DNA from: Raillietiella orientalis
Taxonomy: Eukaryota
Reading direction: 5' to 3'
Assembly: GCA_036172245.1 (NCBI GenBank)
Contig: JAYWIR010000032.1
Location: forward strand, 1,736,001-1,800,000
Length of the DNA: 64,000 bases
Shown: positions 2,600 to 50,180 of the stretch, in pieces
Position numbering within the stretch: the stretch's first letter is position 1
Layout of the letters: every line of letters begins with the position of its first letter
Program-made: the position numbers and the translations under genes
The notes under the pieces: model-generated
Databases searched by the model: none
Told to the model about the DNA's origin: nothing
The model's input: only the letters and a program-made list of their open reading frames with translations

Positions 2600-3640
2600 C
2601 ACTGGGATCCCTCATGCAACACCCCCGGTATCATTGGTCCAGAGGGAAGGACTGAACCCAACTGCAGCAGAAGCAAACAAATCCAGTCCTTCCCTCATCT
2701 CCTTGTGGGAATGCGTAGGCGAGGTGGCTGCGTGCTCGATTCTCACCTGGGTGCGGCGGGGAGTTTATTTTCACAAACTTATTACAAAGCAAATTGCGAC
2801 TGGAACAGTGGTCCAACCACGCCCAATTTAAAATAAGCCTGCCAAGTCGCCGGTACGCAGACCGGCGCGGCTCACCACGGCAGCAGAGGGGGGGGGGGGG
2901 AAATAAAAAAAATAAAAAGTAAATACACTTTGGGGGGGTTCGGGAAGGGATCACTGCCCGCTGGTGGTACTCCGGTCCATCCTCTCTAGGATGCCGGCAA
3001 GCTCTTCCTGAATGCTGACTTCCAGGTGGGGCCATATCTTTGCCATCCTGATGAATTGGACAGTGAAATGGATGGCATCCTTGTAGCTGGGTCCTCCCGT
3101 TGCTTTGCTCCAGGTTGCGACGATCCCGCGTAAGCAGCACAAGGCTGCAAGGGAGGCCGCTGGCCGAAGGGCGTTGCGAACGAAGAGGGGCTTAGAAGCG
3201 TTTCTGGAGTTGCCTCCGGGGTTCCCAGGGCCGCAGCAAAGAGTTCCCAGGGGGGCCAGAGGGCAATACAGTCTAACAACAGGTGGGGGAGGGATTCCCT
3301 ACACATGTTTGTTTGTTTTCAGATAAACGCCCCGGCGTACCCGGGTGTCAAAACAGCGCCGACTGCTGCCGTTCCAGGGGGAGGGTGCGGTTGTTCCTGA
3401 GTACTTCAGGTGCTCCACCGGAACGTCCAATAGCTCGCCCCAGTGCGAGAGTCCGTGGGGCGATGTACTCGGGGTCGCAGCGTCGGAGAGCTGGCCCGTC
3501 TTCCACTCGCCCAATTCTTTCTCCTTTCTGGAGACGCTGAGTGCTCGAAAGCCAGCGGCGACTGCCGAGGACACGTCGGTGGCTCCACCGTTCACTTGTG
3601 TTCGCCCGTTCCCTTGTTGAGAATGCCGACATCGGCTCCT
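2600..3640 (-). mobile_element. Degenerate L1/Tx1-like LINE 3' end (copy B)
   Basis: Minus-strand WKTGQLSDAATPSTSPHGLSHWGELL, CRESLPHLLLDCIALW (CCHC/zf-RVT-like) and WPHLEVSIQEELAGILERM. The 3' UTR hairpins lie at 2745-2885. Confidence 0.8.
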
Positions 3641-3689
3641 CGAAAGATTTTCCTCCAGGGGCAGGAAGGGAGGGAGGGGAGGCAGGCAA

Positions 3690-4178
3690 GAGGGAACTAC
3701 TTACAGCCGACATACTTCAGGGGGCGCAAAGGACGTTCCGCAGCAAACCGGGATCCCTTCCCGCCGTTGTCCCTGAAGGCTTTGCATCTGTCCCTTTTTT
3801 TTTATATTCTCCTCGTTTGCTTTCCCCTCCTCTCCGTCTCCGAGGCAACGCCTTTCCGCACGGGCACCCGGGTCTGCTCTTGAGCGAGCGACAATGCGGA
3901 TACGGCAGGACGGCGCGCCCTTCTGCTCCACCCCTTCCCGCGGGCTCCTCGTCCACAACGAACGCCCCGGAGAGACCGGGTGAGCGGAGGCGTTCGGTGG
4001 GCGTTCGCTCGCGCACGCGGAAGGCTGCGACCCGCAGCTGGTGAGGTGGCCTCCGTTCGCCGTTCCGGCTTCTGCAGAGGACACCACGGAAAGCGGGATT
4101 CCGCAGCCAGCAGGCAGGTGGAGAGGTTTCTTGGGAGGTGGTTGCCCAGAGACCGGGCGTTGGGTTTGCTCGGCGTTT
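3690..4178 (+). mobile_element. LINE 3'-terminal segment (copy C), about 98% identical to 26274-26762
   Basis: Colinear 489-bp match with constant offset 22584 and about 10 substitutions counted by eye. ELLTADILQGAQRTFRS resembles ELAGIFTGVQRTPSS. Terminal hairpin gccccggagagaccgggtg. Confidence 0.85.
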
Positions 4179-10840: not shown

Positions 10841-11519
10841 CGGCAACCCTCGGGGTTGTCGAGGACCGCAGTTTCCTGCACAGCGGCTTCGAGTCGGACG
10901 CATCCAGCTGGAGACTATCCATCATCTTTGCTCATCGTCTTTGCTTCGCCCCGTGTTTCCCAGTATCCCGATACCACCCATCGTTCTTGGAAATGCTGTT
11001 TCCCCTTTGAGAACCCCCTGATACTATTGGCACCTGAAGCTCATTTCAAGGTCCAGATGGTCTGAAAAAGACCTTGAATCGGTTCCCTGTTCCCGGAGAC
11101 CGGAAGGATCCAAGCAAATTCCTAGTTGACCCGCAGTCCAGCACCAACAGTTGAGTAGTGATCTGGCATTCTCGCATCCCACTCCTCGGTCGAAATTTCC
11201 ATCAATTTCGTGATCGTGACCTCAGTCAGAAGCGCTGAAATTCCTGGAGGATGGATGTGGTGCGACTCTGGCTTCAGCAGAGTGCTGGCGAGTTCAGCCA
11301 CAGATGGAGGGAGGTGGCCTCACAACGTAACAACGTGCTTGCTGCGTGCTCAGGACCGTAGGGAAAAGTAAAATGAAAGCGTCCACGTTTCTTCGGCTTC
11401 CCAGCAGAAGCATCTAAAGGTAAGAGGTTTCTGCGTGTTCCATGAAGTGGAATGGCAGGACAATGGACATCTTTTGAGTTCTTTTTCTGCCTTTGCTGTT
11501 TTCCTATCAGCTTTTTTTT

Positions 11520-12060
11520 TTTTCCGGGTTTTCTGTTCTTTGGTTCATTAAGTACCTCAAGAGCCGTCGCGTCTCCCATGCATCTCTTTAAACACCGTTC
11601 CATGCCAGCCGAGGGTGCGTGTAATTCCTCAAGATAGGAGGTGACCCGAGAGAGATCCGCCCTATGAATCTCGGAAGGGATCCTCGGAAGGGTCCGCTTC
11701 ATTTTTCCTTCTCTGGAGGGAACCCTCAAGGGAACCGCTCCTGTTTACTCTTCTAGAGAGAACTCCGCAGGGACGCTTCCTAATTTTCTCAGAAGGGCGC
11801 TGCTTCCCCGAAGGGAGCGGCACGCTTCTTCGCACTCTCTGGAGAGGTGGTGACACACCTATTCCATCAGTACGACGCGGAGGGTCCCCACACTGGGGGG
11901 TCCGCTCCTCCAATATCTGGAGAGACGGAGACACACCTATACCATCGGTGCGACGCGGGAGGTCCCCACATTGAGGCGTCCGCCCCTTCCCACAACCGGA
12001 GCGGGAACTCTACACTCCTTGATTACTGGAAGGACCAGGAGGTCGACTCCCATTTGTCCC
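11520..12060 (+). repeat. Unclassified dispersed repeat 'unit B' with ~40-45-nt subrepeats
   Basis: Shares GAGGGTGC..TCAAG.TAGG..CCTATGAA and repeated tctgga-gggaaccc-aaggga units with copies at about 12980-13450(-), 19120-19350(+), 35850-36330(+), 41950-42380(-) and 53290-53720(+). Contains a 78-bp tandem duplication at 11837-11990. Confidence 0.75.
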
Positions 12061-12139
12061 GATCTTCATCGGAGGCATCCGGTTCGAACAGTTACCAGTG
12101 CCGCCGCACCCGAATGAATGTAGGCCAACCAGAGTCATC

Positions 12140-12320
12140 TCGCGGAAGTAACTCGAACCCATGACGCACGCACTGCGTCGCTTTCTTTCGCACTATTCGA
12201 ACCCATGCCATTCGGTACAACGCGCGGAGACCACCGTAATCACAAAGCCTCCGACGCGTGCAAAACCACCACCCACACTCTCTGAGCATTGAGAGAGTGC
12301 GGACCATTTCCCCGTGAATG
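12140..12320 (-). mobile_element. Fragments of a tRNA-derived Pol III (SINE-like) head
   Basis: Two minus-strand B-box-like motifs (gggttcgagt near 12151, gggttcgaat near 12196). Context similar to 43140-43200. Confidence 0.55.
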
Positions 12321-12828
12321 CGACAGAGGCGCTGCTGCAACTTGCAAGGCGACCGCACTTTACCATCACTGCAGCCAAGGATGCAGCGGAAGGCCAGAGT
12401 TCAGAGAACATTGAGAGAACGCACTGGTAATCTTCTTGCAGAGAGTGGTCCCAATTTCTGGCACCTTCTGAATGAAAGACAGTGCAAATCTCAAACAAAG
12501 GGAGAAGCAAAAAAAAAGCGTAAACAAAAAACGGAATCGCAGGAGGTGGACTATTGGTATGCGCGAAGGAGGTGGGACACGACTCGTGAGATTAGCCGCC
12601 CAAGCGTGCAAGAAGTCCAACAGCTTTGGGACGTTTCTCCAAGCTACAGAATGGGGACTCATTGCTACCCCTTCGTGAAGGAGCGAGAAAGTCAGAAAAG
12701 AGATGTGCCCGACGAACGATCCTTGGCGAGAAGCAGCAGCACGGCGCTAGAGCATGCCCGAGGACGGCGCTCGAGGTCGGTTTCTGCCGACTTCGGGAAG
12801 CCAATATCCTCCTCTCGGATCATTGTTG

Positions 12829-12920
12829 GTTTCGAGTCCCTGCTTGCAAGATGACGCTGGTTGGCCTCTTCGGGTGCGGCAGTGGTGGATGTCGGACGCC
12901 CTCGTTGACTGGCCGGGAGT
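12829..12920 (+). mobile_element. Isolated body segment of the same tRNA-derived cassette
   Basis: gtttcgagtccct..gcaagatgacgctggttggcctcttcgggtg matches the reverse complement of 16090-16135 and 36865-36910. Confidence 0.75.
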
Positions 12921-12979
12921 GGAAGTTGAACCCTCCAGGAAGCAAGGGGCAGGTTCCCTTCGGCCTCTCCCCTCTGGTG

Positions 12980-13450
12980 CTGTGAAAGTGGAGTCGCCCT
13001 TCCCTCTGTGGGGGTGGCCCTCCATCTCATACCATGGAGATGGTGGATGGACATCTCCCCAGAGTATCAAGAAGTGCGCTGCTCCTTTCGGGGAGTGGAT
13101 CCTTCAGAGAAATCTCGAAGCGTCTCTTCGGGGTTCTCTCCAGAGGAGGAAACCAGGAGCGGATCTTTTCCTGGGGGTCCCTCCGGATAAGAAATGATGC
13201 GTGGTCCCCTCCGGGAGGTCTACACCAGGAAGAATAAGGATGAAGGGGTTGTCTTCGGATTTCCAACGAAGAGCAAGAGGAACGGACTCCTTGCCCTGGA
13301 GCCTTGCTGGATTCGTAGGGTGGTCCCTACGGGGTCACCCCTTATAAATTGAGGAGAGTTCCACGCACCCTGGGTTGGACGTGGACAGTGCTGAAAGAGC
13401 TTCCTGTCCCCTAAGAAGCCGAGCGGTTTTTCAGTACTATGGGTGGGCTG
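12980..13450 (-). repeat. Unit B copy
   Basis: Reverse complement reads cagggtgcgtgg..ccctacgaatccagcaagg, followed by the subrepeats. Confidence 0.7.
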
Positions 13451-13749
13451 CGGAGACTCCTCGAAAGGCGAGCTGCCTAGCGGAATCCGAGGGAGGTGCA
13501 GCGCAGCAGACGGCAACGATCCGTATGCGAATCTCTTCAGACGGAGACTCCACTTTCCTTCCTTCGAGTGTCGCGGGAGGAAGGATGCGATCCGCGCGGG
13601 AAGATGCCAGCCTGCTGCAAGATGGGGAAAGGGGGGGGGAGGGGTCGTTTGACCCTTTCCTTGGAGAGGGAAGCAGAGGGAGGCAGCTTCCTCGCTCCGC
13701 TGGGAAGAGGCTGCGCGCGCGCGATGCGTGTCGTCACGCGCGGTTCAGG

Positions 13750-14250
13750 GCGCCCAGTCCGTCGTCTTCAGACCTGCAGACCCGAAGGAATTCCACGTAG
13801 CTAAAGGATGCTGGTCAGGACCGGCTGAGCTGCGCCACCGATGCGGGGGGTGGAGATGCGCAATGCGCCGAATGGACAGGCGACTCGGAAACAGGGCAGC
13901 TTCCGGACCACCGAAGCTCAGCGATGCGTGCGCGCCGTCCAGATCGTCTGCGCCGATCTGGTATGACCAACCCAAGGCCTTCTCAGCCTCATAGGAAACC
14001 AGGACCACCTGCGGTGGTCCTGGTTTCCTTTGAGGGTTTGCGGAGACGATCCGGAAATGCTTCCAGAGCGTGGTCAGCACCTGTGGGGAGCAGTAGCCTT
14101 GGCAACCTTCCCGCCTGCTCCAAGTTCCCTGGCGACGACCCGACTGGGCGGGTCCTCCATATCTGCGCGTGCGCCGAGCGCGGCGACTCGACCCAGCTCA
14201 CGCGAAGGAGGGGGAGGGGAGAGAGCTGCTCGCCCCCGTCGAACGCCATC
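13750..14250 (-). mobile_element. Degenerate LINE RT core (domains 4-5)
   Basis: SRREGCQGYCSPQVL (compare RGVRQGCPLSP) followed by IGADDL (compare YADD). Confidence 0.65.
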
Positions 14251-14959
14251 TGCTGCGGAGGCTGAGAAAGACGGGAAGGGACGCAGATTGACGAGCGAGT
14301 CTCTCTAGCCTGACCTCCTCTGTGGGGCAGGGTCTCTCTCGCTGCGGATGAGGAGGAGGAGGTGATTTGGAGGAGGGGGCGGGTCCCTCATGGCTGCCGC
14401 TCACGCCGGAAGGTTTGCCGGAAGGGACCAGCCCGACGGAGCCCGGGAGAGGGGCCGTTTCTTAAATCTTCTCCTGCGCTCGGAGAGGCAGGGAGGAGAG
14501 TCGCCGCACCTCAGGGCGGCGCTCCCCAGTTGAGGGGACCAAATTTCGCCAAGAGCTTTGACCTTGAATGGGCTTGCCCACGCCGCGATCAGCCTCTGTC
14601 ATCTACCCACAGGAAGGGACGGTCAGGGGGCACGAAGAGAGAGCAGCAAGGAGGATCCCGCTTGGATCTCCTTAAGAGCTTCCACGGTGGCGTCAGTTCG
14701 GCGGGAAGAAGGCGGGAGAAAGTTCTTTGGGCGGATGCGCCTGACGCGGGTAACGGCCGGCAGGGTTGTATTCCGCTCTATGGCACCGCCTCCGGGTGTC
14801 TGCTTCGCGGCTTCCGAGTTTCGGTGTCCTGCATGGGGAGGAAGCCGGGCGCCGTGCATGCTGCGTGTCCCGACACCCAGCTAGGATCGCGTGGGTCTGA
14901 CCACAGCGAGGCAGGCACGAGCCTGGAAGGACCCCGGAGAGTCCACTTCTAATCCCAGG

Positions 14960-16075
14960 GGCCAGCCAATAGGAGCATTCGGAGAGTTGCTGGCTTTCAC
15001 CAGTGCCGCAAGTGGGCGAGGATCTAGGTGACAAATGCAGAACAGGTGCGATGTTCCCTGTACGCGCGCAATAACATCACACTACGGAGGATCCTGGAAG
15101 ATTCCTTGAAGAGTGCGTGGGCAAACGGAATCTCCCTCGCCTCCGCTCTGCCTTCCCTAAGGGAACACATGGGCAGCAGTCTGACGGCTAGGTGGGAGCT
15201 TACTGTGAAAACCTCCGGAAGGAGAAAAGCACAGGACCAATGGACGACGGGACAGGTTACCGACGCTGCGACCCCGAGTGCTCGACTTCACGGACTTTTG
15301 TTCTCGAGCATGCTACTGGATATTGAAGAGGAAGACCTGAAGTGGTTCCTTGTGCTCACGAACACCCACACCTTCCCCTTAAAGTGGCAGGAGCTGGCGT
15401 TCATGATGATGCACTGGGAACTCCCGTGCAACGCTCACCGGCAGTGGACACGGGGGAGGTGTGGACGCGCACTATGCAAGGTGCAGGGAGCGAGAATATC
15501 GCCTCAAGAATCACCTCCTAGTAGACTGTGTTGCTCTCTGGCCTCCCGACGCTTTGCTGCGACCCTTAGAAACCCGACGGCAACACCAGAGACGTTTTGA
15601 AGCGCCTCTTCCTGCGCGACACCCTCACGCCGGCAGGTCGCATCCCCAGCAGCATTGCGCTGCCCATGAGGAATCGTGACTGCATGGAGCAACGCCAGAG
15701 GAGACTAGAACGACAGGGACGCCATATTATTTTTCTGTCCTCTTCATGAGGTCAGCGTCAAGATAGCCTCATCTGGGAGCCATAAAATAGGAACTTGCGG
15801 GCACCCTTTCAAGGATGCAGAGGACGCCCTCCAGCACCCGGCGATCCCTTCCCGAACCCCCCATTTTTTTGACTGTGTGTTTTTTGTTTTACTTTTGCTC
15901 TTTTTGTTTGTCTTCCCTTCTCCTGTGCTGCCTAGGCGAACCCCGCTGTCCTGCGTGCCAGTTCCCGGCAGGTTCCTTCTTGTAGCTTGTATAAGTAACG
16001 TGGCAAGATCAAACGTTCTGCCACAGACGTGCATGTTTATTTTATAAATAAATGCCCCGGTGTGACGGGGTGTCA
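14960..16075 (+). mobile_element. LINE ORF2 C-terminus and 3' UTR (copy D)
   Basis: ORF 15028-15600 (WELTVKTSGRR..WTTGQVTDAATPS..PLKWQELAFMMMHWELP), then CARCRERE..HLLVDCVALW. Hairpins present; AATAAA at 16047. Confidence 0.85.
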
Positions 16076-16245
16076 GCCAGTGCCGTCTCACCGGAATAGA
16101 CCAACCAGCGTCATCTTGCGGGAGGGACTCGAAACGCACCGATTTCTCGGCGTTGGTCCTTCCCGGTCGGGATTCGAATCCGCGACGCTTGGCACAGCAC
16201 GCGAGCGGAGACCGCAGCAGCACTCCGGAGAGCCGACGGTTGGAA
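16075..16245 (-). mobile_element. tRNA-derived Pol III cassette, antisense to and abutting the LINE 3' end
   Basis: Minus-strand B-box ggattcgaatccc at 16169-16181; body shared with 36850-37022. Confidence 0.75.
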
Positions 16246-17139
16246 GCATCAGGAAATGAGACCGCAGAAGACGAGCAAACGCCTCGAAGGCGCGCGAGGC
16301 CGGGTCCATGGAAACGAAGCTGCAGCGAAGTACCGTGCACAACTCCGGAGCGTGAGCACAGGGCACTATGTCGGTGTCGTCGGGAAAGCCGCCACCCTGG
16401 AGAAGCTGCGGCGAGGAGAGGAGGGAAAACTTCGCCGTCTCGGGCAAAGCGCAGGTCGTCAAACCTGGATTCCGCGCAAGGCCATCCGCCATCCACCTGA
16501 TAGGTGATTCGCTCGATCCTGCCATCCGGACCAACGGTGGCGGCGGAGAGGGCGACTGCCACGCAGGGTTGGGCGCGATGCTCCCCGTCTCCCCCCTCCT
16601 TCCCCTCTGCCTCCCCACCTGCACCTCTTCCCAGCCTTGTCGAGGAGGCAGGGCACGCGAAGGAGAACGAGGGGTCGGGGGAAGGGGTGCCGGCAGCGGG
16701 TTACCCGGCAACCCCGGCGGCGGGGGGCGAGGCGAGCGGTGATCCCGATCGCGAATGAGACGGCGCGCGCGCCGGACCGGCGCAGCGACGAGCGAAACAC
16801 CGCTGCAAGGTCAGCGGAATGTCGCGCGGCAACGCGACGACCGACGGCTGCGGATCTCTGGATCGCGCGCGCGCCCGCGCGCCTCGATCCGGGGGGGGGG
16901 GGGGGGAAAGGAACCTCTTTGCGAGCTTCTCGCGCTAGAAGCCGCCGACCCGTCCGTGGCCTGCGGGCTCCGCAGCTGAAACGAGAGCGGATCGCTCTCG
17001 CTTTCGCTCAGACGGTCGCTCGACGCAACTCCGCGGACTCGCTTCTCCTTGCACTGTTGGCTCAGAGTTGCGCCAACGGTGCAAGGACAAGCGAGCGCTC
17101 TGGATGGGAGAGGAGGATGGAAAAGACCGTCGCCGCCAC

Positions 17140-19119: not shown

Positions 19120-19350
19120 GCAGGGGGCCCGTGCAGCAGCCCTTCAAATCATCTCCAGGACCACCCTATGAATTCAGGAAGGAGGAAGGAGTTCATTCCT
19201 CGCTCTCGGGAGGGAATCCACTTCCTGATTCTCTCCCACAGGGGGGTAGAGGGATCCACTTCTCGTTCCCTCCTTTCGAGAGAACTCCGAGGGCACGCTT
19301 CCCGTTTCCCCGAGGGCAGTCCCCGGAGGAAGTGGATCGCTTCTGGCGTG
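19120..19350 (+). repeat. Unit B copy (partial)
   Basis: cccttcaaat..ccctatgaattcaggaagg followed by subrepeats. Confidence 0.6.
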
Positions 19351-25899: not shown

Positions 25900-26762
25900 G
25901 GACAAGAAGCCGGCAAAGAGGAGAGGGAGTTCGGGTCGCTCGTGCGGTGGCGGCTTTTGAACTACCCCCTCAAGTGCGGGGAAAATTCGGCCCTTCAACC
26001 TCACCTGCTTGTACGTCGTGCTCCCCTTTCCGGAACGTTTCGCGAGCGCGGCCCACAGGTACCTAGTGGACAATCCGCCCACTGGGAACCGGAGACACAG
26101 GCACTTTCGCACGCCTCTTCATGCGGAACGCACCGGCGCCAGCCGAACGTCTCTCGAAGCTGCCTGCTGCCTTCGTGAAGTAGTGAGCCGGAAAAGGAGC
26201 ATGGGCAGGGGTGGACCTCTGGCAGTAAGAGGGGGGAAAGATGACCACACCCAGGAACAAGCCCTGGCGTCAGGAGGGAACTACTTACAGCCGACATACT
26301 TCAGGGGGCGCAAAGGACGTTCCGCAGCAAACCGGGATCCCTTCCCGCCGTTGTCCCTGAAGGCTTTGCATCTGTCCCTTTTTTTTTATATTCTCCTCGT
26401 TTGCTTTCCCCTCCTCTCCGTCTCCGAGGCAACGCCTTTCCGCACGGGCACCCGGGTCTGCTCTTGAGCGAGCGACAATGCGGATGCGGCAGGACGGCGC
26501 GCCCTTCTGCTCCACCCCTTCCCGCGGGCTCCTCGTCCACAACGAACGCCCCGGAGAGACCGGGTGAGCGGAGGCGTTCGGTAAGCGTTCGCTCGCGCAC
26601 GCGGAAGGCTGCAACCCGCAGCTGGTGAGGTGACCTCCGTTCGCCGTTCCGGCTTCTGCAGAGGACACTACGGAAAGCGGGATTCCACAGCCAGCAGGCA
26701 GGTGGGGAGGTTTCTTGGGAGGTGGTTGCCCAGAGACCGGACGTCGGGTTTGCTCGGCGTTT
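25900..26762 (+). mobile_element. LINE 3' end with terminal cassette (copy F)
   Basis: KCGENSALQPHLLV, LEAACCLREVV; the last 489 bp are duplicated at 3690-4178. Confidence 0.75.
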
Positions 26763-33289: not shown

Positions 33290-33520
33290 CAACCCGCAAT
33301 GAGTACGACTACAATGAGTAAGGGCCCGGGTAGTCTTCAGCACCGGGGGCCACTCGAGTACATCCATGGGGATGCTCAGCAGCTCGCCCCAGCGCAATAG
33401 TCCCTTTGGTGGGGCACTTGGGGTCGCAGCGTCTGTCAACTGGTCCGTGGTCCAACCATCTTGGTCCGACAGCAGGTGGTGCATGGAGGAATCTCGTGCA
33501 AAGCGCACTTCACCACTAGA
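33290..33520 (-). mobile_element. Inverted LINE ORF2 fragment
   Basis: GWTTDQLTDAATPSAPPKGLLRWGELLSIPMDVLEWPPVLKTTRAL closely matches the translation of 34730-34870. Confidence 0.9.
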
Positions 33521-33599
33521 CACGGGGGAGAGTGGACACGGAAGAAGGAAGTGAGCGAAGAAGATCTCCCCGCACCTGCTGTTGGACCTTGCTGACCTC

Positions 33600-34160
33600 C
33601 GGCCCCTTAGGGTCGCCTGGCGACGATCCTAGGTATACCGGTGAGCGGCCCAGGGGCATTTGGAAACGCCTCTTCGCGCTTGCCGCTCTGCCGCCAGCCG
33701 CGCCCCTCGCAGTTCTCTGCAGTGTTCGCGGGATCACGGCGGACTGGAACACCAGGAGAGGAAGCCAGAATGGCAGGGATGCCATCCACTGGGCGCGAAT
33801 CTTCCTGAAGACCGCCTCAAGATGGCTCTACCTGGGCACTATCTGGCTAGAACTTGCCAGCATCCTGAACAGGATGCTGGCAAGGACATCGGGCAGCGCG
33901 CTGTGATCCCTCCCTCGATCCCCCAATTATCTTCCCCGTCTATAATTTCCCCCCCTCCGTTTTGTGCGTTTATTTTTCGGGGGTTTTTGTTTCCCCCTCC
34001 CCCACACTGCCGAAGCGAACCTCGCCGGTCTGCGCACAGCTCTTCGGCAGGTTTAGTGAACGTGGTAGAACCAACGGTTCTACCACATCTCCCTGTATTT
34101 TTCTAATGCTCATATAATAAATGCCCCGGCACAACCGGGTGTAAAAGCACGCTGGAACTG
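33600..34160 (+). mobile_element. LINE 3' end (copy H)
   Basis: AAPLAVLCSVRGITADW..LKTASRWLYLGTIWLELASILNRM. Hairpins at 34007-34050, 34062-34086 and ~34123-34142; AATAAA at 34116. Confidence 0.9.
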
Positions 34161-34179
34161 CAGCCGAGGCCCCGAGTCC

Positions 34180-35575
34180 GTTTGAAGGACTTGTGTGCCC
34201 CTCGTCGCGATGGAGGCCTCGGCCTCCTCACGCTGGAGCGGCTGGAACTGCAGCTGCAGTTCAGGACTCTAGCCCTAGTAGCGAAGCTATGGAGCACCAG
34301 CTGGTGCGAGCCTGCACGACGCCTGGTTCAGCGAGCTAGCGGCTGCGCGGGACTGTCTACCTTCCTAGCGCGCCGCAAACGCCGGTACCTGTTCCACTGC
34401 GGACTGGAACTTCGGCGAGTGGCGAAGCTGACCAGAACGAACACCTGGATCTCCTGCCGGCCCGCGAACGGTACGTCCTGGCTGCAGGAAAGCCTTCGCA
34501 CGTGGGCCCAGATCGAGGAAGCGAGCCCGGAGTTGCGGCAGCGAATGCTGCACTCCTATCATAAGAGCCGCTCGCTGCAGGACATCATTGTGCAGCCCAC
34601 CTTGAGCGCATGGGCTGAGAGGACCTCCCTTGCCACGGCTCTGTTTCACCTCAGGGAGCACCTGGGCAGTAGCCAGCCGGCGAAATGGGAGGTCCGGTGT
34701 AGTACCTCTGGAAGAGAGAGAGAGCAAGGTGGTTGGACCACGGGTCAGCTTGCTGATGCCGCGATCCCAAGTTCCCCACCGAGAGGACTGTTGCGCTGGG
34801 GCGAGCTGCTGTGCATCCCGCGGGATGAACTCGAGTGGCCCCCGGTGCTGAAGACTACCCGGGCCCTCCCCCTGAAGTGACAGGAGTCGGCGTTCCTGGT
34901 GTTGCACTGGGGACTCCCCAGCAACGCCCGCCGTTCGCACTGGACGAGGGGGGCTGTGGACCCAAATTGTGTCAGGTGCGGGGAACGGGAAACCCTCCCG
35001 CACCTGCTTCTTGACTATGTTGCCCTCCGACCTCTGTGGTTGCGTTTCGCAACGGCCCTAGGAGCAGCCACGATCAACCTTAGAGACGTTCTGACGCGCC
35101 TCTTTGTGCGTGACGCCCTTCGGCCTGCCGCAGCCCTTGCAGCCCTCTGCTGCCTACGAGAGATTGTGGCGGCCTGGAGCACCGCCACTGGTGGACTGAA
35201 CGACAGGGACATCATCTGCTCCGCCCTACGTTTCCTAAGGACGGCAGCCAGATGGTCCCATTTGGGGCATATGCGGACCGAACTTGCCGGCATCCTGGAA
35301 AGGATGTAGAGGACGACTCCAGCGGAATGTGATCCCTTCCCCAACTCCTCCCTGCTGCTTTTGTAAATAGTGTTTTCTTTTTGTTTTTATTTGTCCTTTC
35401 CCCCCCCGCTGCCGAGTCGAACTCGCCAGCCTGCGTGCTGGCTACTCGGCAAGTTCAGATTCTTCATTAGAACATTTTTTAGGACGCTGTAGGGGCAATA
35501 GCCCTACACTTGCTTGTTTGTTTTTACTAAAAAAATAAACGCTCCGGCGCACCCGGGTGTAAAAGCACGCTGGAG
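34180..35575 (+). mobile_element. Best-preserved L1/Tx1-like ORF2 C-terminal half and 3' UTR (copy I)
   Basis: LCAPRRDGGLGL (post-RT GGLG motif) through CVRCGERETLPHLLLD (zf-RVT-type CCHC), with one in-frame TGA at 34878-34880. Structured UTR. Confidence 0.9.
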
Positions 35576-35849
35576 GCCACTTTACCTCCTCCGGAGGGAT
35601 ATCGAGTAGCTCTCTCTAGCGTTCAAGTCCGTGGGGTGAGACACTCGGGGTCGCAGTGTCCGTCACTTCCCGAGTTGCCCATTGTCCCCTCCCCCCCCCT
35701 CAGCCCCAGAAGTTTTGTTTTTGCTGCCATGCAGCACGTTACTTCTCACCTCGCTTGGATAGCACTGTCCTTTGCGTCCCTCAGGAAGGGCGGCAATGAA
35801 GATCATGGAAATCCTTTTGGTCTCCTCTGCCTTCGCTGCTTTCCTTCCA

Positions 35850-36330
35850 GCCTTTTTTTTCTTTTTGGTTCGTCAAGCACTCGACAGGTGTTCGCCTCCA
35901 TGGTGCGCGCTCCCACCCGAGGGTGCGTGCAACCCTTCAAGTTAGGGAGTAACCTATGAACCCAGCAAGACTCCGGAGGGAGGAGTCCGTTCCTCTTACT
36001 CTTGGTAGGGGAACCTCGAAGGGAACCCTTGTCCTGGTTGTCTCCGAAGGGAACCCAGAAAGGATCCGCTCTGGGAATTTCTTCTCCGAAGGGTATCTGC
36101 AAGGGAAGCTCTCCTTGTTTTCTTCCCGCTGGAGAAACCTCGAAGGGAAACTCGCCGATTTCTCTGAAGGGCTCTTCTCGAAGAAAGCAGCTCTCTTCTT
36201 ATTACACTCTGAAGAGGCGACTCCCCGAGGGAAGCATCAACCAGCTCCATGAAACGGACGGCTGCATTTTCGCAACCGGAAGGTGGGGGTGGGGGGGACC
36301 ACGAAGGACTCCTTGATTCCTGGGACGAAT
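35850..36330 (+). repeat. Unit B copy
   Basis: gagggtgcgtgcaacccttcaagttaggg..cctatgaaccc followed by about 6 subrepeats. Confidence 0.75.
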
Positions 36331-36384
36331 TCCGGAGAGTTAGCTCCCAATCTGGGCCAGTCTACGGGGGCATCCGCGATTCCA

Positions 36385-36850
36385 CCAGTGCCGCACTAGC
36401 AGCGCTTTGCTGCCTTTCCAGGATCGTAGCTGCATGGAGCGATGCCAGAGGAGGCCAGAACGACAAGGACGCGTATTCTGCGTAATTCTGCTGTAAACGT
36501 ATATTCTGCTGTCCTCTTCATGAGGACAGCGTCAAGATGGCTCCATCTAGGAGCCATAAAACAGGAACTTGCCGGCATCTTTACGGGGGTGCAGAGGACG
36601 CCCTCCAGCACCCGGCGATCCCTTTCCGAACTCTCCATTTTTTTTGACTGCATGTTTTTTTGTTTTACTTTTGCTGTTTTTGTTTGTCTCCCTCTCTCCT
36701 GTGCTGTCGAGGAGAACCCCGCTGTCCTGCTTGCGAGTTCCCGGTAGGTTCCTTCTCGTAGTTACAACTAACGTGGAAGGATCAAATATCCTGCCGCAGA
36801 TGTGTGTGTTTATTTTTTGTAAATAAATGCTCCGACGTGACCGGGTTTCA
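36385..36850 (+). mobile_element. LINE 3' end (copy J), close relative of copy D
   Basis: AALAALCCLSRIVAAWSDARGG..RWLHLGAIKQELAGIF; UTR colinear with 15670-16075. Confidence 0.9.
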
Positions 36851-37022
36851 ATTAGCGCCATCGCACCGGAATAGACCAACCAGCGTCATCTTGTGGGGGG
36901 AACTCGAAATGCACCCATTTCTCAGCATCGGTGCTTCCCCGTGCGGGATTCGAACCCGCAACGCTTCGCACATGTGCGGGGACCGCAGCCACGCGGCTGC
37001 CAACGTCGGCCAGCGGCTAGAA
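36850..37022 (-). mobile_element. tRNA-derived Pol III cassette, antisense to the LINE
   Basis: A-box-like tggcagccgcgtgg and a T-arm gcggg-ttcgaat-cccgc with a perfect 5-bp stem. Confidence 0.8.
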
Positions 37023-40000
37023 GTGCGTGGATCTGACCAGTGGCCAGAAAAACTCGGAACAATTCTTGTTAGCAAGTGTTTGCGTCCTAAGGAACTAGAT
37101 TCTCCGAAGCTACTTAATTTTTGAGTAAACTTTGCTTTCCTATACGCCAGCATATGTATACACATGCATGAGTGTATGCTATGTGTACATAACATTTCAT
37201 CCAATCAGTATGAGAACTCACACACCAATGTGAACATACGTTTTTCTGCCAGTACACTCACGAAATGTGTATCTATTTTACGTACACACTGGTATGCAAC
37301 AGGTATTGGCTGAGAACCATCTCACGCTCTCCTGCGTTCATAAACGTGGGTGCCTTTTTGTGGAAACGGTCATTTTGCATCTTGTGGGTGCCCAACTCGG
37401 CATTCTCACACGCTCGTGCCGCCACTACTCCGCTCGCGCGCATTTTTGGAAGACCAGTTGTTGAGATCAATGAAAGACTCGATCTGGAAAGAACACATAA
37501 GAGAGGTCTACACCGTGTCAGAGCCTACACGGCAAACAGACCTACACGGACACTGCTTCCGATTCGCTCCTTCGTGTTACGATTACGAACGGCGGCTGTC
37601 GGGACGCCGACCCGTTCTCCACGGCACCTTCAAATGGCCGAAGTGCCCGCTGCCTCTGAAGTTTGGAGCGCGAAAGAATTCCTGCAGGAAATGCCACCCT
37701 TCCAGGGTAACCTCACAAAGAAGAGAGGAGGAAGAGAAAGAAGGGAGGGGTGGAAGAGGAAAGGAGGAGAAGGAAGATCTCTGCATCATCTGGCTCGTGC
37801 GACTGGAGATCGGAACATACGAATACCGGGCAATTAAAAGCCACCGCGGATTCTCTACGTGCCCAAGGACGAGTTATAAATGCGAGCTTATTGAAAGAGG
37901 AAAGGGAGGGAGTTGTTGTGCTGTGAAAGGTTTTAGCACGTTTTGGAACTTGCATTCCCAAAAATCTCAAGGTACGTGAAGACAGCAGATTGCTCGGAGG
38001 AACATGCATCTCGAAAATTCTACGAAGGAAGGGCAGGGGAGAACGAGTGCACATTGAGTGAACGATCTCGTTCTAAAGAGTCCAAAGATCTCTGTCGGCC
38101 AAACACGTCATTATTTTTTAGCAATAATTCAGTTCTTCTTGCAAGAGCGAAGACAATTCACCCCCTCGAACTATTCCTTTCGTTCACATCAACTTAACTT
38201 TCGAGGATGCTCAACGTCAACAGGTGCTCCTAGACGGATAGCTAATCTGTGATAAGATGAAAGGAATGTACTTCATCCAATGTGTAAATTGTCAGGACAG
38301 CGACTTGCATTGGCGAGTGGGAGACGAAAGATTCGTTAGGACAGTCTGAGTAGAGAGTTCATTTGTCCTTAAATCATGCGGCAAGAACGGAATGGTCTGC
38401 CCCACTGCCATGAAGATGTACGCGCAGCATCTGAAAAACGAAGCAGGCATTCCGTCTCGCTCGTTCACTTCGAATGCGAAGCACAGAGCAATCCAGAAGA
38501 GCAGTCTGCCACGACAAAGAAACCGGGATGGCATTGCAAAAGTAAATAACGAATAATAGGTTCGATCCCCGTCGCAGAGAGCAGACAGCTTCCAGAGGAG
38601 CATCGGGACTGAAATACCGAGAAGATGCTGTGTTTTCTCTCATTCCATTGGCTAGGAAAACGACCATGAAAAATAAACATGCAGGCTTATTCCACATCAA
38701 TTAGTATACAAATTTATTTTCATATGCAAAGCTAATCCTATTTATTAACGTACATATTATTAGCAGTAATATTACTGCAACAGGTATATTTAATAAGATT
38801 CAGTGGCATACATTTTATTAATGTAATCAATGAGTTGATCTAGATCATAAGAAATATACACGCTTATTATGTATACTATGTATATGCATGTGAGCAAAGA
38901 TTAGCACGTGGGTTAATACTCATCATGAGGATTACGAAAAGGAAATATCTACTCCTCTCGTGTTTTGGCGTTCGATTTTGCGCGAGACCAAAGCACCTCC
39001 CCGCACACATAATATGTGATAATGGGTGAAGCCGAATCGCTGAAGCGAGGCAGTCCACAAGCATCTCTTTGCGTCAACTCTTTATGGAACATGACGCATG
39101 CTGTTTTCCTTTTTTTTCGGAGCATATGTGCTCCCAAGCTCGTCGCGAGAGCACTTGCGTGTGTGGCGAAGACGTGAATCACATAGAATTCAGAAACGCC
39201 CGCACTTGCAAATTCATTGCCCGGCCTCGTGGACGAGAGCATATGTGGATGAAATCTCGCCCCCCTCCCTCTCCACCAACCTTCTTGGCGAGTGCTGTGT
39301 TAAGCATCAAGGTGATGTCCCGAACCGAAAGATTCTTCTGCTGCCTCACGTCTTGAAAAATCAATCGTCACCCTGCAGGACCCTCACCTCCTCCCTTCCT
39401 CATCTTCCATTCCTCTTCCCTGTTTCTCCTTCTCCAGCTCCTCACTCTCATCCATCCCGGCTCAAGACAGAAAGATTTGCTCCACCTCCTATAAAGACCT
39501 CGGTGCTTGATATTCTTATTTTTTCTCGTGCTAAAGTTTCCTCCTTATCTCTGTTCTCCGACATTTCTCGTTCTTGCTTTCTTCCGTTTCTAAGCATTAA
39601 GTTTCCAAAAGTTTTAGGGAACCCATTCAGGAAAAACTACCCTATCAGTTCGATCACGATCCCAGTAACTCCTAAAGTCTTCCGCGAGTGATCAATCTTG
39701 CTGCTTCCGTTTTTATTGTTTTTCGTTTGGTGCCTGACAAGAAAAAAATTAGGGAGGACGGGCCGATGTTTCCCGGTGCTTGACCGTCCAACTCCATTTC
39801 ATGTCGAGACGTTACGAAATACTCGTCGGATGCTGAACTCTTCAGCACGCTACTGCTTGGACTACCACCCTCCTCAAACAAAGGACTCAGCCTTACCATC
39901 GGAAAGTCTCGTCAGCAATTAAATCGGAAGGCAACAGAGAAAGAATAGAAATTCTTTTTTTCAGCTCTCTCTGGGAAGTCAAGAGTGCAGTCTCCCGATG

Positions 40001-40499: not shown

Positions 40500-41950
40500 G
40501 GCAGCCGGGATGCCGCTGAGCAGGAGAGGCGGAGGCTGCAATCAAAGGAAATGGAGGATCGCCAACGGCGCAGCTGGTCGTCGAAAGAGTCCCGACGCAA
40601 GACAAAAATCTTCGAGAGAAAAGCTCCTGATGAGGAAGATAATCCTGGAGCATTCGATGATATTCCGAGATATCAGGGATACTTGATGTCAGAGCGTAGG
40701 GTTTGCCCCATTTATTCCCTAAGAAAATGGCTCTCTCTGAACTCCTCAGTCCGGCATGTGTCTCATTAAAACTACGTAACGGACCGTGATGATGATCATT
40801 CAGCACGGATGCTCACTGTCGGGAAAAGGACTCCATCAAGTACCCGGATGTCGAAGGAACACATTTTCCGCGTTATGGCTCAGAACCCGAGCTCGAAGTC
40901 GGTCCGCACTTTCCTCCTCCTCTTTACATCAATTCATCTGCTTTCCCCGCCCGCACCGTTCCTTCGTGTGGCGCTCCAGCCGACCGCTTGGCAACGTCCA
41001 GTTCTGTCCTGTTCCAGGGCGAATGAAGTACAGGTACGACATGACTGACGCTTCCGGATAATCTTTCTGTGGCTGCTGCATCCTAGGCACTTGCCTGACA
41101 TTTCCCTCTTCAGTGGCCAACAGCTTCTGCTGTCGCCGAGATGGATGTGGCAGTTGCGGTTTATCACCCCAGCGCCACTTCCAGCGGTCCATCAAGCGAA
41201 TCGTCCCCCTGCGTGAGCTGGGAAAGTTGACTCAATTGTCTCCCGGAGGATAACCCTATCTGTGGACCCAGAGCTGCGAATGGGAATTCTGTTTCGAGCC
41301 GGCTCGCGACGAAGAAAATCGGCTCCAGTCTGACCCCGATCAACCTCGAGAAAGAATACTGCTGAGCTCCCTAAAGAGCACCTGAGACAAGAAAAGTCCA
41401 CGACCCGTGTGGAGGGAGGGAAGACATCGTTCCTTGTTCAGAGGGAAATATTCCAGATTCTCCGGTCATGCACTTCTTCATGCGGCGCACCTCATTTGGA
41501 CTCCAGTATGTGAGCGGTGTCCACCAGAAACGCCACCGACCCCTCGTGTGGGAGATGCTGGTCGGGAGATGCGTCCCTTCAAGAAGAGGTCCCGGACTGC
41601 TGCCAGATCTGGTGCTCCGAAATGAACGGGAGACAACAGTGGCGGGTGCTGTCTGCTCCCACAGAACGCGTGACCCTTTCGGTTTCTTGCTTGGACGTGA
41701 AGCGGCAGCCTCCGCGCGCCACTGCCGACCCCAGAGCCGGCAACGAATCGCCACGTGATGGACGGTCCGCAAAGGAGGCTTCGTGGTTAAGGCTTCCGCG
41801 GCAGAATACTGCGGCAGAAACTGACGCCACTGAGTCGTTGGGTTCCGAGGTGCTCCTGCAATGGCGCTGATTGGCCAAGACATTCGGGCGAAGGACCGGC
41901 GGTGGTTTAAGCCGAGAGGCCCATGAAGAAGGCCAGAACTCCAGAATTAT
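40500..41950 (+). mobile_element. Degenerate LINE RT region (domains 3-7 and GGLG region)
   Basis: PGAFDDI (compare KAFD), IIQHGCSLSG (compare QGCPLS), KYRYDMT (compare YADD.T) and CVPSRRGPGLLPDL, in order. Confidence 0.6.
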
Positions 41951-43017
41951 GCAAGGGATCCCTCTGCGGGAAGCTGCAGCGCCCCTTCTGAATTTCGGAA
42001 GCGTCTCTTCGGGGTTCTCTTCAGAGGAGTGAACAGAATCGGTTCCCTTGAGGGTTTTCCTCCGGAGTAGATGACATGGAGAAGACCATCCCCCTTCCGG
42101 GATGCTCCCTCCGGAGAGAATGAAGGAGGAGATTTCCTTCTGGGTTTCCCTTCGGAGACAACCAGGGTGGGAGGTGCGGTCCCCCCTCGCCAAACGTGAG
42201 AGGAGTGCACTCCGAGCCTTTCTGGATTCATAGGGCGGACCTCCTTCCTCCTCATGCCTTCCCTATCTTGAAGAATAACATGCACCCTCCGCGGGTGGCG
42301 TGGAAACGTGTTAAAGAGCCACGTGCGCCACGAGGCACGCGACTGGCTCTTCAGGTACTTAGCGTACCAAATAAAAAAGAAAATCTGAAAAAGATGCTGG
42401 GAGGGAACACAGACCCAAAAGAGCCGGCAAAGGAGAAGGGCGTGAAGGAAGGGACGGAAGCGGTGGAGGATCGACCTGTTCCCCTTGCAGCGCCGCCGCA
42501 AGGCTGCTGGGAGGCTCATTGACGGGCACTGTCACCTCTCGGGAGAAGAAGTTCGTCTTAGGGGAATGCGAAATGGAACCGAGGATGAGAGAGAGGAAGA
42601 GGAGAGGGAGAAACAGAGAAGGAATGGAGGGGGAGGAAGGCTGGAAGAGGAAGGAGGGAGGAGAAAAAAGGGAGGGAGAGGGAGGGAGGAGATGGAGGAA
42701 GGTTGGAGGAAGATAGCAAGAGGGCTGCAAAGAGGAGGAAGGGAGGAGGCGAGAAGGAGGAAGGGAAGAAAAGGAGGAAAGTTGAAGAAGGAGAAGGGGG
42801 ATGATGAAAAAGGGAAGAAGAGAAAGGGTAAAAGAGGAATGGGAGAGGAAGAAGGTTGAAGGAGAAAGGGATCAGGAGGATGACGAAGAGAAGGATGGGA
42901 GGTAGAGGAAAGGAGGAAGACAAAAGAGGAAGAGGATGAAAGTGGTAGGAAGAGGAAGGGAAGAGGGAGATTGGAGGAAAAAGGAAGGAAGTGACGATGA
43001 GGGCCCTTCAGGGTGGC
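41246..43017 (+). repeat. Left arm of a 1772-bp near-perfect inverted duplication
   Basis: Mirror of 52653-54424: paired ORF coordinates all sum to 95670, and I saw only about 3 substitutions. Confidence 0.95.
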
Positions 43018-43019
43018 TC

Positions 43020-43220
43020 TGTCCTGAGAGCTGACAGCAGACGGACAGCTCGAGCTCCAAACCCGCACCGGAGCCAAATGGAGACGCTCCTGCGACGTTG
43101 GGGATCTCACTCGCAGATTGGCGTCACTCACGCTTAGCCGCACCCATTTCCCGTGAGGGATTCGAACCCACAACGCTTAGTGGTACGCGCTGAGATCGCA
43201 GCCATCTGGCCGCCAACGAG
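43020..43220 (-). mobile_element. tRNA-derived Pol III cassette, not attached to a LINE tail
   Basis: A-box-like tggcggccagatgg; B-box gggttcgaatccc at 43157-43169. Confidence 0.75.
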
Positions 43221-44639
43221 ATGAGTTCTCTGGCACTGGGTCCCTTTCTACCGCATCGGATGCTGGATAATACTAAGAATGCGATTAGGAAGGGTTTAGA
43301 TTGCGGCAGTCTGAGGTAACGACACCTCGCTGTAGACAGAACTGGAGTCAATGAGCAAGCAGAAAAGCATTCTGACGAGGCCCAGAATCCAGGAAGGGAC
43401 GGAAGGGAAAACGGAGATGTGGGAATGCGACCCGAGTATCCAGACGCTCCGGAGTTCTGCTGCTGCTGCAGCCACGCAAAGGAGTCGCAAACAGGATCCT
43501 TCCTTGTGGTTGCCGTGGTCGAGTAGGCACCACGGGTCGAGTCGCATTTTGGGTCATTCTTGTCTTCTTGCTGGCTGTCATGATGCCTCTGAGGCGAGCA
43601 TCAAGAAGGTGGAGGTCAGAAGGTACTTGACTCCATTGTCAAGTAACCAGCCACCCTCCAAGGTGAGCTTTTCATCTGGGCTTGATCGAGTACTCCAAAA
43701 AGAGAAACCAGGTCGTCTATCCTGGACATCTTCCTTCCCTTTAAAAGCATGGAAAGAAGAGGAACCAAATACCAGAAGGATGCTGAAGGAAGAGCAGGTG
43801 GCTCCCCGGCCAACAACAGATCATCCCCCCCCCGTCTTCAGGCTCCCGGAGGGAATGCTCGGGCGGCGTCTGCTCGCTCCTAAGTGGCATCATCCGTGTT
43901 CTACAAAACCACAGCCTCTTGCAGTGAGCGATTGGCTTCCGCGTTGCTGACGCTCTTTGAGGAGGGGGGAAGGGGGGGATGACGAAGGGATCGTCCCCGC
44001 AGATGATGCCGCAGTGGGAATTCCGATCGCGGGAGAATGAGACCGCGAGGGAAGTAATCCAGAGTGGTCCTGCCCACTCTCACGTGAAAGATTCGAACCG
44101 GAGATCTCATTGTGATGAGCGAAAAAAAAATTTCACGAGGGAATTGCAATGTATTAGTGATCTCCTTATGAAAGGTCGATTCGCGGAAGATGGATGGTGA
44201 AGAGGCTGAGGGTACGGATATCAGCCAGATGAGCCCCATGGGACGAGAGGAGGAACGCACTTCCATATCCCGGAAAAAGTTATCCCGGAGTATAGGGGAG
44301 AGGGAGACACGGCTGCTGCTGCTGCAAGTCTCCGCGGAGGCCTCTCCTACGGCTGCTGCAGCCGCGTCGATTTCGTCACGGCGAGCGTCGTGGGCAACGG
44401 CTGCAGAGGTGGAGATCTCTCAGGAGCGCTGCGAGGTTGCCGAAATGCAGAGGATGCAGATCGCACGGGCATTTTCCCGGAGCGGTTCCCGTTTTCAAAG
44501 TCGATTCCCGACCCGCGGGATGGAGAGAAGGGTCTTGAGGACGTGTCTGGCACGTTCATTTTCGGCTTTGCCCCTGTTCCGCGCGACCGCCGTCTTCGAT
44601 CCTCAGCGACAGGGATTGAACTGGTAGACCGGGACCTAC

Positions 44640-46560: not shown

Positions 46561-46781
46561 AGTTTGGCACTAGGTGAACCTAACCAAGCCTAATCTGAAG
46601 CAGACCTAAAGGATTAGAGGAAGGAGCACGAACAGCTCCTCTTCCATAACTCCTGCGCCATCCGCCATTTCCTGTGCATAGCCAACCACAGATCGTTCAG
46701 GAACTGTCTCAGGCGAGACTGGAGAGACAAGCCTGAACTATCCATGTGCTCCTGAATCTCCTGAAAGAATCCTTATCGGCT

Positions 46782-47358
46782 ATTAGAAAGGCTTCCGATC
46801 CGATCCGGTAGATGCCCCAGGCTGTTGGATCCTGAAAGATCGTCCCGATGTCGATGCCACTCAGAGGGAGATTCAGCGGACCGTCCGAGGGAGATGGAAG
46901 CTGATCTCCCGGGAAACCAGCCCGTTCCCTCCAAGGACGTCTCCGGATAGGTAATTAGGACGGATGGACGAGCAATGCCCGTTAGGGAATCCAGCGGCGG
47001 CGTTGCGGGAAGAGTTCGTGAAGAGATGATGGCAAGAAGGCCGACAACTTGGTGTTTCGCCTATCAGTCCAGGCGTCAGCTAAAGCCTTGGTTACTGGGT
47101 ATGCCCGCGATCTCCTCAACGAAGACATCTCGAGGGAGCTGAAAGCGCTCCTGCTGCAACGTTGCTAAGATGAAGCGCTAGATGGTGCTACCTACCATTC
47201 GGCACAGCAGGGACGTTTATTGGACAACCTCCTTGTGCGTCCTGCGTCCTTCAACGAGAAAAAGGGTCAAGTTCCGAAGCCCCTCGAAGAGATGTGATGG
47301 AGGAGAAGCAGCTGATCGATCCGCGAGGTTCCACGAGGAAAGGACCTCCGCCTAGTCA
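46782..47358 (+). repeat. Left arm of a 577-bp inverted duplication
   Basis: Mirror of 50025-50601 (coordinates sum to 97383); mismatches seen only near the outer end. Confidence 0.95.
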
Positions 47359-49479: not shown

Positions 49480-50180
49480 CCCAAGAGGTGTTGCCGGAGG
49501 TCCGAGTTGATGAGGGAAAAGTGAACCCGCAATGGCAAAGAAGCTCAAGGTCACTATGAGAGCTTTGCAACGGAAGTTTACACCGCGGAAAACGAATTTT
49601 CTGTGCGGTTTCCTGAAGTGACTTTTCGCGAGATGATTTCGCCTCCGGAACAGCGCTCGCCTAAAAGGAAAGGCTGCTGCGTGCTGCTCTGGAGGTTGCA
49701 CTCTCGTCGCTGAAGATTACAAGAGCCACGCTTTTTGCTGGCGTTTGGGTCCCGGAACCAGGAACCAATTGGTTTTTTAATGGTGGGAGGCTCGTGCGCT
49801 AGTGGAAAATGAGTTCCCATCAAAGAGGACTGACTTCACGTTTGAGCATTCTGTGCAACCCCTTGATGCGAGGGATCGCTTTTGCCTGAGAGAATACCCG
49901 CATATTTTCAGAATAAATTGGTTTCCTTTGTTCCCTGACAACTCTTTCTAAATCTTCTCTATCTTTCCAGAGTTGTCGTCTGCCATCACCCAAGAAGTCC
50001 ATCATGACGATGGCACGGAATGGGTGACTAGGCGGAGGTCCTTTCCTCGTGGAACCTCGCGGATCGATCAGCTGCTTCTCCTCCATCACATCTCTTCGAG
50101 GGGCTTCGGAACTTGACCCTTTTTCTCGTTGAAGGACGCAGGACGCACAAGGAGGTTGTCCAATAAACGTCCCTGCTGTG
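49480..50180 (-). mobile_element. Second decayed mariner/Tc1-like transposase, an inverted paralog
   Basis: HTH-like GRRQLWKDREDLERVVREQ..LHRMLKR, then LVIFSDES (first catalytic D motif). DNA similarity to 47380-47470. Confidence 0.55.

Follow-up and report, generated by a model that had tools for sequence, protein, structure and literature searches.

LINE families of the Tx1 clade prefer particular transposons as targets: the available part of Kojima (2015, PMC4494074) places Tx1 in Tx1D and Tx1-Mar in Mariner-N4_AMi, and it describes Tx1-9_AMi as inserting into Harbinger elements, approximately 300 bp away from their 5' end. TRE3 elements of Dictyostelium are found approximately 100 bp downstream of tRNA genes, with a range of 14–228 bp for Dd_TRE3-A, according to the portion of Spaller et al. 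(2016, PMC5006619) available to us. In the L1 lineage, stringent-type LINEs are described with 3' stem-loop recognition in the accessible text of Ohshima (2012, PMC3472496).

We analyzed a stretch of 64,000 nucleotides of Raillietiella orientalis DNA (hereafter the window). A first-pass annotation had interpreted one locus in it as an L1/Tx1-like LINE fused at its 3' end to an antisense, tRNA-like Pol III cassette, and had offered two explanations, namely a LINE lineage inserting at a fixed position downstream of a Pol III unit or a LINE with a convergent Pol III promoter of its own. Judging from the junction sequences of the two copies concerned (D and J), we consider it probable that the apparent fusion is a nesting junction, in which the LINE inserted twice into an older repeat, here called R, at one site for which it may have a preference.

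The arrangement resembles the transposon-targeting Tx1-clade LINEs, as far as these are covered in the available part of Kojima (2015), in that a LINE recurs inside another repeat family, where it occupies a preferred position and keeps one orientation, with short duplications and 5' truncation; APE, RT, and zf-RVT domains are also shared, here in the relatives of the D/J LINE. It differs from those cases in comprising two events, in having a SINE-like target with a tRNA-like end instead of a DNA transposon, and in that other subfamilies of the same LINE lie elsewhere in the window; its membership in the Tx1 clade is putative. The resemblance to TRE3, as presented in the accessible portion of Spaller et al. 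(2016), is one of geometry only: the LINE 3' end points toward a B-box-bearing unit and lies roughly 100 nt downstream of it. TRE3 uses working tRNA genes and a wide distance window, whereas the unit here is a decayed repeat end, and the two insertions have one nucleotide position and one duplicated sequence in common. A terminal palindrome and the lack of a long poly(A) are shared with the stringent-type LINEs of Ohshima (2012, available part), but the palindrome stem shows no compensatory changes here, and its recognition by the reverse transcriptase is only putative.

Results

Copies D and J and their junctions

A blast search of 15001–16600 against the window aligned the two copies over 15673–16218 (D) and 36423–36989 (J), with 79.8% identity over 575 columns. 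The basic layout was as first annotated: both copies have AATAAA (16047–16052 in D and 36822–36827 in J) and a conserved palindrome, followed by a cassette of approximately 170 nt, the opposite strand of which has a B-box at a distance of 122 nt (D) or 123 nt (J) from the AATAAA. The 13-mer complement of the B-box was exact in D (16169–16181) and had one mismatch in J (36945–36957); a third match, at 43157, had no adjoining LINE tail.

Copy D is a 5'-truncated LINE at 15011–16076 on the plus strand, as determined from the LINE 3' profile match (15001–16075) and from reading the junction. It contains the remnant of an ORF2 C terminus to approximately 15597, a 3' UTR, the AATAAA, the palindrome at 16055–16070, and the end "...TGTCAG". 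The ORF of another copy, I, matched D at 15007–15384 in tblastn (44% over 127 aa, E 5e-23). The left part of R lies directly beside D at 14925–15010 (minus strand) and ends in a target copy, CCAGTGCCGCA (15000–15010). The R profile gave no match on these 86 nt at E values up to 10, and the flank was found by alignment at the junction: blastn of 14925–15010 against 36323–36395 gave 62.8% over 86 (E 0.001), and when the flank was aligned with the ends of R-left in J, X, and Y, its scores corresponded to z values of 8.7, 5.1, and 5.3, respectively, with none of 400 random windows scoring as high. On the other side of D, the right part of R, which is the cassette, occupies 16077–16245 (minus strand; R profile 16077–16218, columns 704–845, E 9e-28). 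It opens with a second target copy, CCAGTGCCGTCTCAC (16077–16091), and includes the conserved core GACCAACCAGCGTCATCTTGC at 16099–16119 and a tRNA-like end at approximately 16146–16245, in which the minus-strand 11-mer of the B-box at 16170–16180 has one mismatch. A very GC-rich stretch with a run of 16 G (16891–16906) lies approximately 650 nt past this end of R.

Copy J, also 5'-truncated and on the plus strand, lies at 36397–36851 (LINE 3' profile match 36384–36850, columns 648–1097) and comprises only 455 nt of LINE, being cut much further in than D. The left part of R beside it, at 35805–36396 (minus strand; R profile columns 4–709), ends in the target copy CCAGTGCCGCAC (36385–36396); its segment 35943–36396 aligned with the R copy X at 13329–12874 (63.6% over 481, E 9e-34). 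Translation and blast showed that GCCGCAC at 36390–36396, at the left junction of J, fits the R target and the LINE ORF alike. The right part of R, again the cassette, occupies 36852–37012 (minus strand; R profile 36846–37043, columns 691–899), opens with the second target copy TTAGCGCCATCGCAC (36852–36866), and has an exact minus-strand 11-mer of the B-box at 36946–36956. The profile matches of the two flanks of J overlap in columns 691–709, which is not independent evidence of a duplication since the flanks were joined as one row when the profile was built.

The order at the junctions is CCAGTGCCGCA, LINE, and CCAGTGCCGTCTCAC in D and CCAGTGCCGCAC, LINE, and TTAGCGCCATCGCAC in J. The target stretch of R, CCAGTGCCG...CA(C), is thus present at both junctions of D and of J, with approximately 9–15 nt duplicated, and it is single in the uninterrupted R copies Y and X. 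Mapping target-site duplications had been proposed in the first-pass annotation as the way to tell element from target, with duplications at the hairpin meaning that the cassette is the target. The duplications were found at the palindrome, and by that test the cassette is therefore the target. Duplications outside a carried segment and unrelated upstream flanks, which would mark a 3' module or a transduction, were not found at D or J.

Source of the cassette

Homology searches indicated that the cassette of approximately 170 nt is the right-hand end of R, a separate dispersed repeat of approximately 800 bp. A profile built from the two cassettes (D 16053–16270 and J 36828–37045) and run with nhmmer against the window gave significant matches only in D, J, Y, K, and X, the last three of which appeared without an adjoining LINE tail. 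The 21-mer core of the cassette occurred four times in the window, compared with an expectation of 0. To the left of the cassette, as seen in the orientation of D, Y, X, and a further copy, S, continue without interruption into approximately 600 nt of non-LINE sequence.

Y is an empty copy at 11463–12262 (minus strand), in which the left part and the cassette are contiguous (cassette profile 12094–12235, E 2.2e-12; R profile 11410–12260). The empty copy X, at 12825–13501 on the plus strand, has the opposite orientation and is without the tRNA-like end (cassette profile 12887–12829, E 1.5e-7; R profile columns 50–770); Y 11577–12161 and X 13406–12827 aligned in inverted orientation with 60.5% over 625 (E 6e-20). 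S, which is empty and diverged, lies at 53201–53949 (minus strand) and has a second copy at 42469–41721 within an inverted duplication of 99.8% identity. K, at approximately 43050–43222 (minus strand), consists of a tRNA-like end and a diverged body with no LINE tail beside it (cassette profile 43147–43218, E 3.4e-8; R profile columns 779–862), and its minus-strand B-box is exact at 43158–43168. R sequence was also found at 19158–19344.

The extent of R was read from the points at which homology stops: Y and J part at 11463 and 35805 on one side, and on the other side the five copies D, J, K, Y, and S cease to be homologous near 16245, 37012, 43222, and 12262 in the first four. R-right is the best conserved part across all copies (74–91% identity), and in Y, J, and S the sequence close to the far end of R is A-rich. 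Within Y, two tandem units of 77 nt at 11833–11987 are 82% identical.

Two other assignments were considered and dropped. R was not taken as a SINE with a LINE-derived tail, since the continuation of LINE ORF sequence was seen only at the J locus (35805–35564) and not behind Y, X, or S; this LINE ORF sequence beyond R was treated as another nesting, and the AATAAA–palindrome tail of the LINE was not found at the far end of R. Reading X together with 13400–15010 as the 5' part of LINE D was set aside because no homologue of 13400–15100 was present elsewhere in the window and the stretch did not match P0001, the reverse transcriptase protein described below. When metagenomes were scanned with a degenerate 20-mer taken from the core of the cassette, 26 loci were returned, and these were taken as chance matches; the cassette profile aligned at these loci to the 20-mer and a few flanking bases only (at most 37 nt, best E 0.005).

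B-box and tRNA likeness of R

Two of the five R heads, those of J and K, have an exact B-box; the motif differs at one position in D, has degraded in Y, and is lost from S. Degenerate B-box-like motifs had also been reported behind the LINE copies A (2391), B (2649–2659), and C/F (4095), and these were at chance level: the cassette profile detected no homology behind those tails, nor behind the tails of H, I, and M, the B-box 11-mer with at most one mismatch gave 18 matches in the window against 22 expected, and the B-box consensus with at most three mismatches gave 1425, or about 11 per kb per strand. The motifs assigned to A and B both lie inside a LINE ORF fragment (2320–2706, profile columns 122–531) between two convergent tails.

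The A-box-like motif previously noted in J proved weak, and the Rfam tRNA model covered only the T arm of J, with 14.6 bits against a gathering score of 29. K matched the Rfam tRNA-Sec model with 17.5 bits (E 0.33, gathering score 47). No sequence in the window reached an Rfam gathering score, and ARAGORN with default settings detected no tRNA gene in the window; neither program thus identified a working tRNA gene as the target. Relaxed ARAGORN calls on the cassettes were discarded as noise, given that -ps70 also gave 297 calls in the window. The folding energies of the R heads were not unusual (z from -0.76 to 0.41), and the consensus fold of R contained no cloverleaf.

On these comparisons, the most fitting description of R is a SINE-like repeat whose last 100 nt or so form a weakly tRNA-like end. 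It has several features of tRNA-derived SINEs, including a B-box at one terminus, a D-arm-like hairpin upstream of it, an A-rich far end, a dispersed distribution, and no coding capacity that we could find. It is unlike them in that tRNA models stayed below threshold, the cloverleaf is absent, and no tail shared with a LINE was found. Approximately 800 bp is also long for a SINE.

The LINE family in the window

The LINE tail motif was matched eight times in the window, compared with 0.07 expected, and the tail alignment contained these matches together with the degenerate tail F and its duplicate F2 (n = 10). We confirmed that no LINE copy here ends in poly(A): none of the ten aligned tails had more than five A, most finished with 2–5 A, and the tail of a classical L1 was accordingly not seen among them. 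The 3' end of the family consists of AATAAA, the conserved palindrome, and at most a few A, and that of the D/J subfamily reads AATAAATGC, palindrome, and TCA. The palindrome showed no covariation, since compensatory changes were absent and the 84.4% of cells that were paired equaled the shuffled alignments. The tails A, B, C, F, F2, H, I, and M stop at one common point past the palindrome and adjoin sequence other than the cassette; by the cassette profile and the tail alignment, the cassette is absent from eight of the ten tails.

The copies begin at different columns of the LINE 3' profile (D at approximately 10, H at 392, J at 648, and C at 1036). In copy H (33320–34144), an inverted 5' piece (33465–33320, columns 236–381) lies beside the direct part (33468–34144, columns 392–1097), a layout that, as read from the sequence, would be expected from twin priming. 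Variable 5' truncation, short target duplications (11–15 nt at D and J), and the inverted 5' piece of H were thus observed as hallmarks of target-primed reverse transcription.

Several further junctions involve LINE sequence on both sides. The tails of H (34117–34160) and A (2281–2320) are followed within a few bases by the next 5'-truncated LINE in the same orientation, forming head-to-tail pairs. The tails of C (3297–3357; 54 nt of LINE only) and I (35535–35600; 1.4 kb) adjoin antisense LINE ORF sequence. The C and I junctions lie approximately 46 nt apart in LINE coordinates, corresponding roughly to D 15408 and 15362, and the inversion junction of H falls within that stretch; a single shared site for the C and I tails in antisense LINE was rejected on account of the 46-nt separation in the alignment. 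The degenerate tail F lies inside a direct duplication of 492 bp with 97.8% identity (3687–4178 and 26271–26762), near 3957 and 26541.

We scanned 126 ORFs of at least 140 aa and 102 ORFs of 75–139 aa from the window against Pfam. None of the 228 contained a reverse transcriptase or endonuclease domain, and neither APE nor zf-RVT was above the Pfam threshold. A decayed C-x2-C...H motif is visible in the ORF of I (34107–34877), which is 66% identical to P0001, a 619-aa RVT_1 protein (PF00078), over 57% of its length. I alone matched P0001 in the window, and the RT core of P0001 had no match anywhere in it. Among 84 relatives of P0001, PF03372 (APE) was present in 15 and PF13966 (zf-RVT) in 13; identity to these other relatives was at most 30%. 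The Atlas search returned eukaryotic RVT_1 clusters, with a "Transposon TX1" cluster at rank 22 (score 0.88). Because the relatives carry APE endonuclease, reverse transcriptase, and zf-RVT, it is plausible that the LINE is an L1/Tx1-like non-LTR retrotransposon.

Genomic setting

The window is GC-rich and eukaryotic, with a GC content of 0.45–0.64 per 2-kb step. A plexin-like gene with several large exons was found at 58045–63636 on the minus strand, where Pfam detected Plexin_cytopl (E 1.2e-39 and 1.3e-38), Plexin_RBD (1.8e-17), and a weak TIG domain; part of this gene is flanked by a direct repeat of 432 bp with 88.7% identity (55762–56193 and 61430–61853).

The inverted duplication that contains the copy S is 1772 bp in length (41246–43017 and 52653–54424, 99.8% identity), with approximately 9.6 kb between its arms; it holds one R copy and a purine-rich low-complexity block, and the R copy K begins approximately 30 nt past its inner end. 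An inverted repeat of 580 bp with 99.3% identity (46779–47358 and 50025–50604) surrounds approximately 2.7 kb and could represent the termini of a young foldback or terminal-inverted-repeat element.

Discussion

According to the mechanism that we propose, the LINE would insert by target-primed reverse transcription into the older R repeat of approximately 800 bp. The cassette itself was never a part of the LINE, being the right-hand end of R with its tRNA-like terminus of approximately 100 nt. D and J would have arisen separately, each by insertion into an R copy of its own, with nucleotide position and orientation the same in both. The D/J subfamily would then prefer that R sequence, a preference for which Pol III factors are a less probable cause than the endonuclease or pairing between the 3' end and the nicked target. 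The antisense B-box would reflect merely the orientation in which the site is used and would have no function for the LINE.

The part of the earlier interpretation that concerned a fixed site held up insofar as D and J lie at the same nucleotide, in the same orientation, and approximately 90–100 nt from the B-box. The part that placed them downstream of a Pol III unit did not, as the target is a site in a decayed dispersed repeat and not a tRNA gene. Only two of the ten tails in the window are located there, and the presumed support from A, B, and C/F is attributable to chance.

D and J most likely go back to two separate insertions that used one site and one orientation, because the two copies are truncated at different 5' points (15011 and 36397). 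Both copies of the D/J subfamily are at this site and in this orientation, these being two of the ten tails of the wider family, which, with n = 2 in a single 64-kb window, hints at a target-site preference of the D/J subfamily.

The best surviving alternative, which we regard as unlikely though worth weighing, requires no site preference: a single D-like insertion occurred in R by chance, the filled R copy was duplicated, and the 5' 640 nt of J were later deleted between short direct repeats. The GCCGCAC at the left junction of J, which suits the R target as well as the LINE ORF, fits this history, and an overlap of 7 nt is also what a later deletion between short repeats in an older D-like insertion would leave; that deletion, however, would need to begin exactly at the old junction. 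Identity between D and J is on a par in the LINE parts (85–88%) and in R-right (82–88%), as for copying as one unit, and other recent duplications are present in the window. Against copying as one unit, R-right is the best conserved part of R in every copy. The R-left parts of D and J are 75% identical, compared with 76–84% to X or Y, and the individual values (D-X 81%, J-X 82%, J-Y 84%) place D and J no closer to each other than to the empty copies. R continues for 86 nt to the left of D as opposed to approximately 590 nt to the left of J, and the outer flanks beyond R (16246 onward and 37013 onward) share no real homology. Two independent insertions thus remain our preferred explanation of this pair.

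Involvement of the Pol III machinery was considered in two forms. In the broader one, to which we give little credence, the LINE subfamily may have specialized on the Pol III-type, tRNA-like body of a SINE as a safe landing place, recognized through bound factors or through the sequence that these preserve. If true, a TRE3-like strategy would have evolved independently outside the dictyostelids, and the LINE 3' end would stand head-on to Pol III transcription. The narrower and still more doubtful form holds that TFIIIC/TFIIIB at the B-box of the R head guides the LINE to a set distance downstream, with its 3' end toward the head, as in TRE3. The 3' end does face the R head, the site is approximately 90–100 nt from the B-box in D and J, and the available part of the TRE3 study (PMC5006619) gives a comparable approximately 100 bp downstream of tRNA genes; D and J, however, share the same nucleotide and the same duplicated sequence (n = 2), in contrast with the widely scattered distances of TRE3. 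Integration set by distance instead of sequence is therefore not what the two copies show, a weak indication with n = 2. Moreover, the R head is no recognizable tRNA gene (no ARAGORN call; Rfam scores of 14.6 and 17.5 bits, below the gathering scores), eight of the ten tails in the window lie elsewhere, and the relatives of the LINE look L1/Tx1-like, a group known for sequence-directed targets in the accessible part of PMC4494074.

It is highly improbable that the cassette belongs to the LINE, whether as a 3' module of the element (serving as convergent Pol III promoter or as reverse transcriptase handle) or through 3' transduction from a source adjacent to R. D and J do share tail and cassette as one block of approximately 550 nt in a LINE without a long poly(A), but upstream of both LINE 5' ends lies the stretch of R that in empty copies runs straight into the cassette, and the target duplication is located at the palindrome. 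Had a transduced copy landed in R, a second R-right would be expected behind the cassette, and none is present there; eight of the ten tails, moreover, are without the cassette. The earlier suggestion of a LINE with its own convergent promoter or tRNA-like handle was consequently abandoned, as the cassette runs into non-LINE sequence in the empty R copies, the left part of R immediately precedes the truncated LINE in each of the two copies, and 9–15 nt of R are duplicated at the two junctions.

In annotation, the cassette needs to be masked together with R instead of with the LINE; otherwise, the finding is ordinary transposon nesting in a repeat-rich stretch. It removes the idea that the LINE has an antisense Pol III cassette or tRNA-like handle of its own, and replaces it with a checkable one, a LINE subfamily that would re-use one site of 12–15 nt in a SINE-like repeat. 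If a genome-wide count agrees, this would be a new target-preferring LINE, of a lineage in which identity to the nearest database relatives does not exceed 30%, and the filled and empty R sites would provide a clean set for dating both families.
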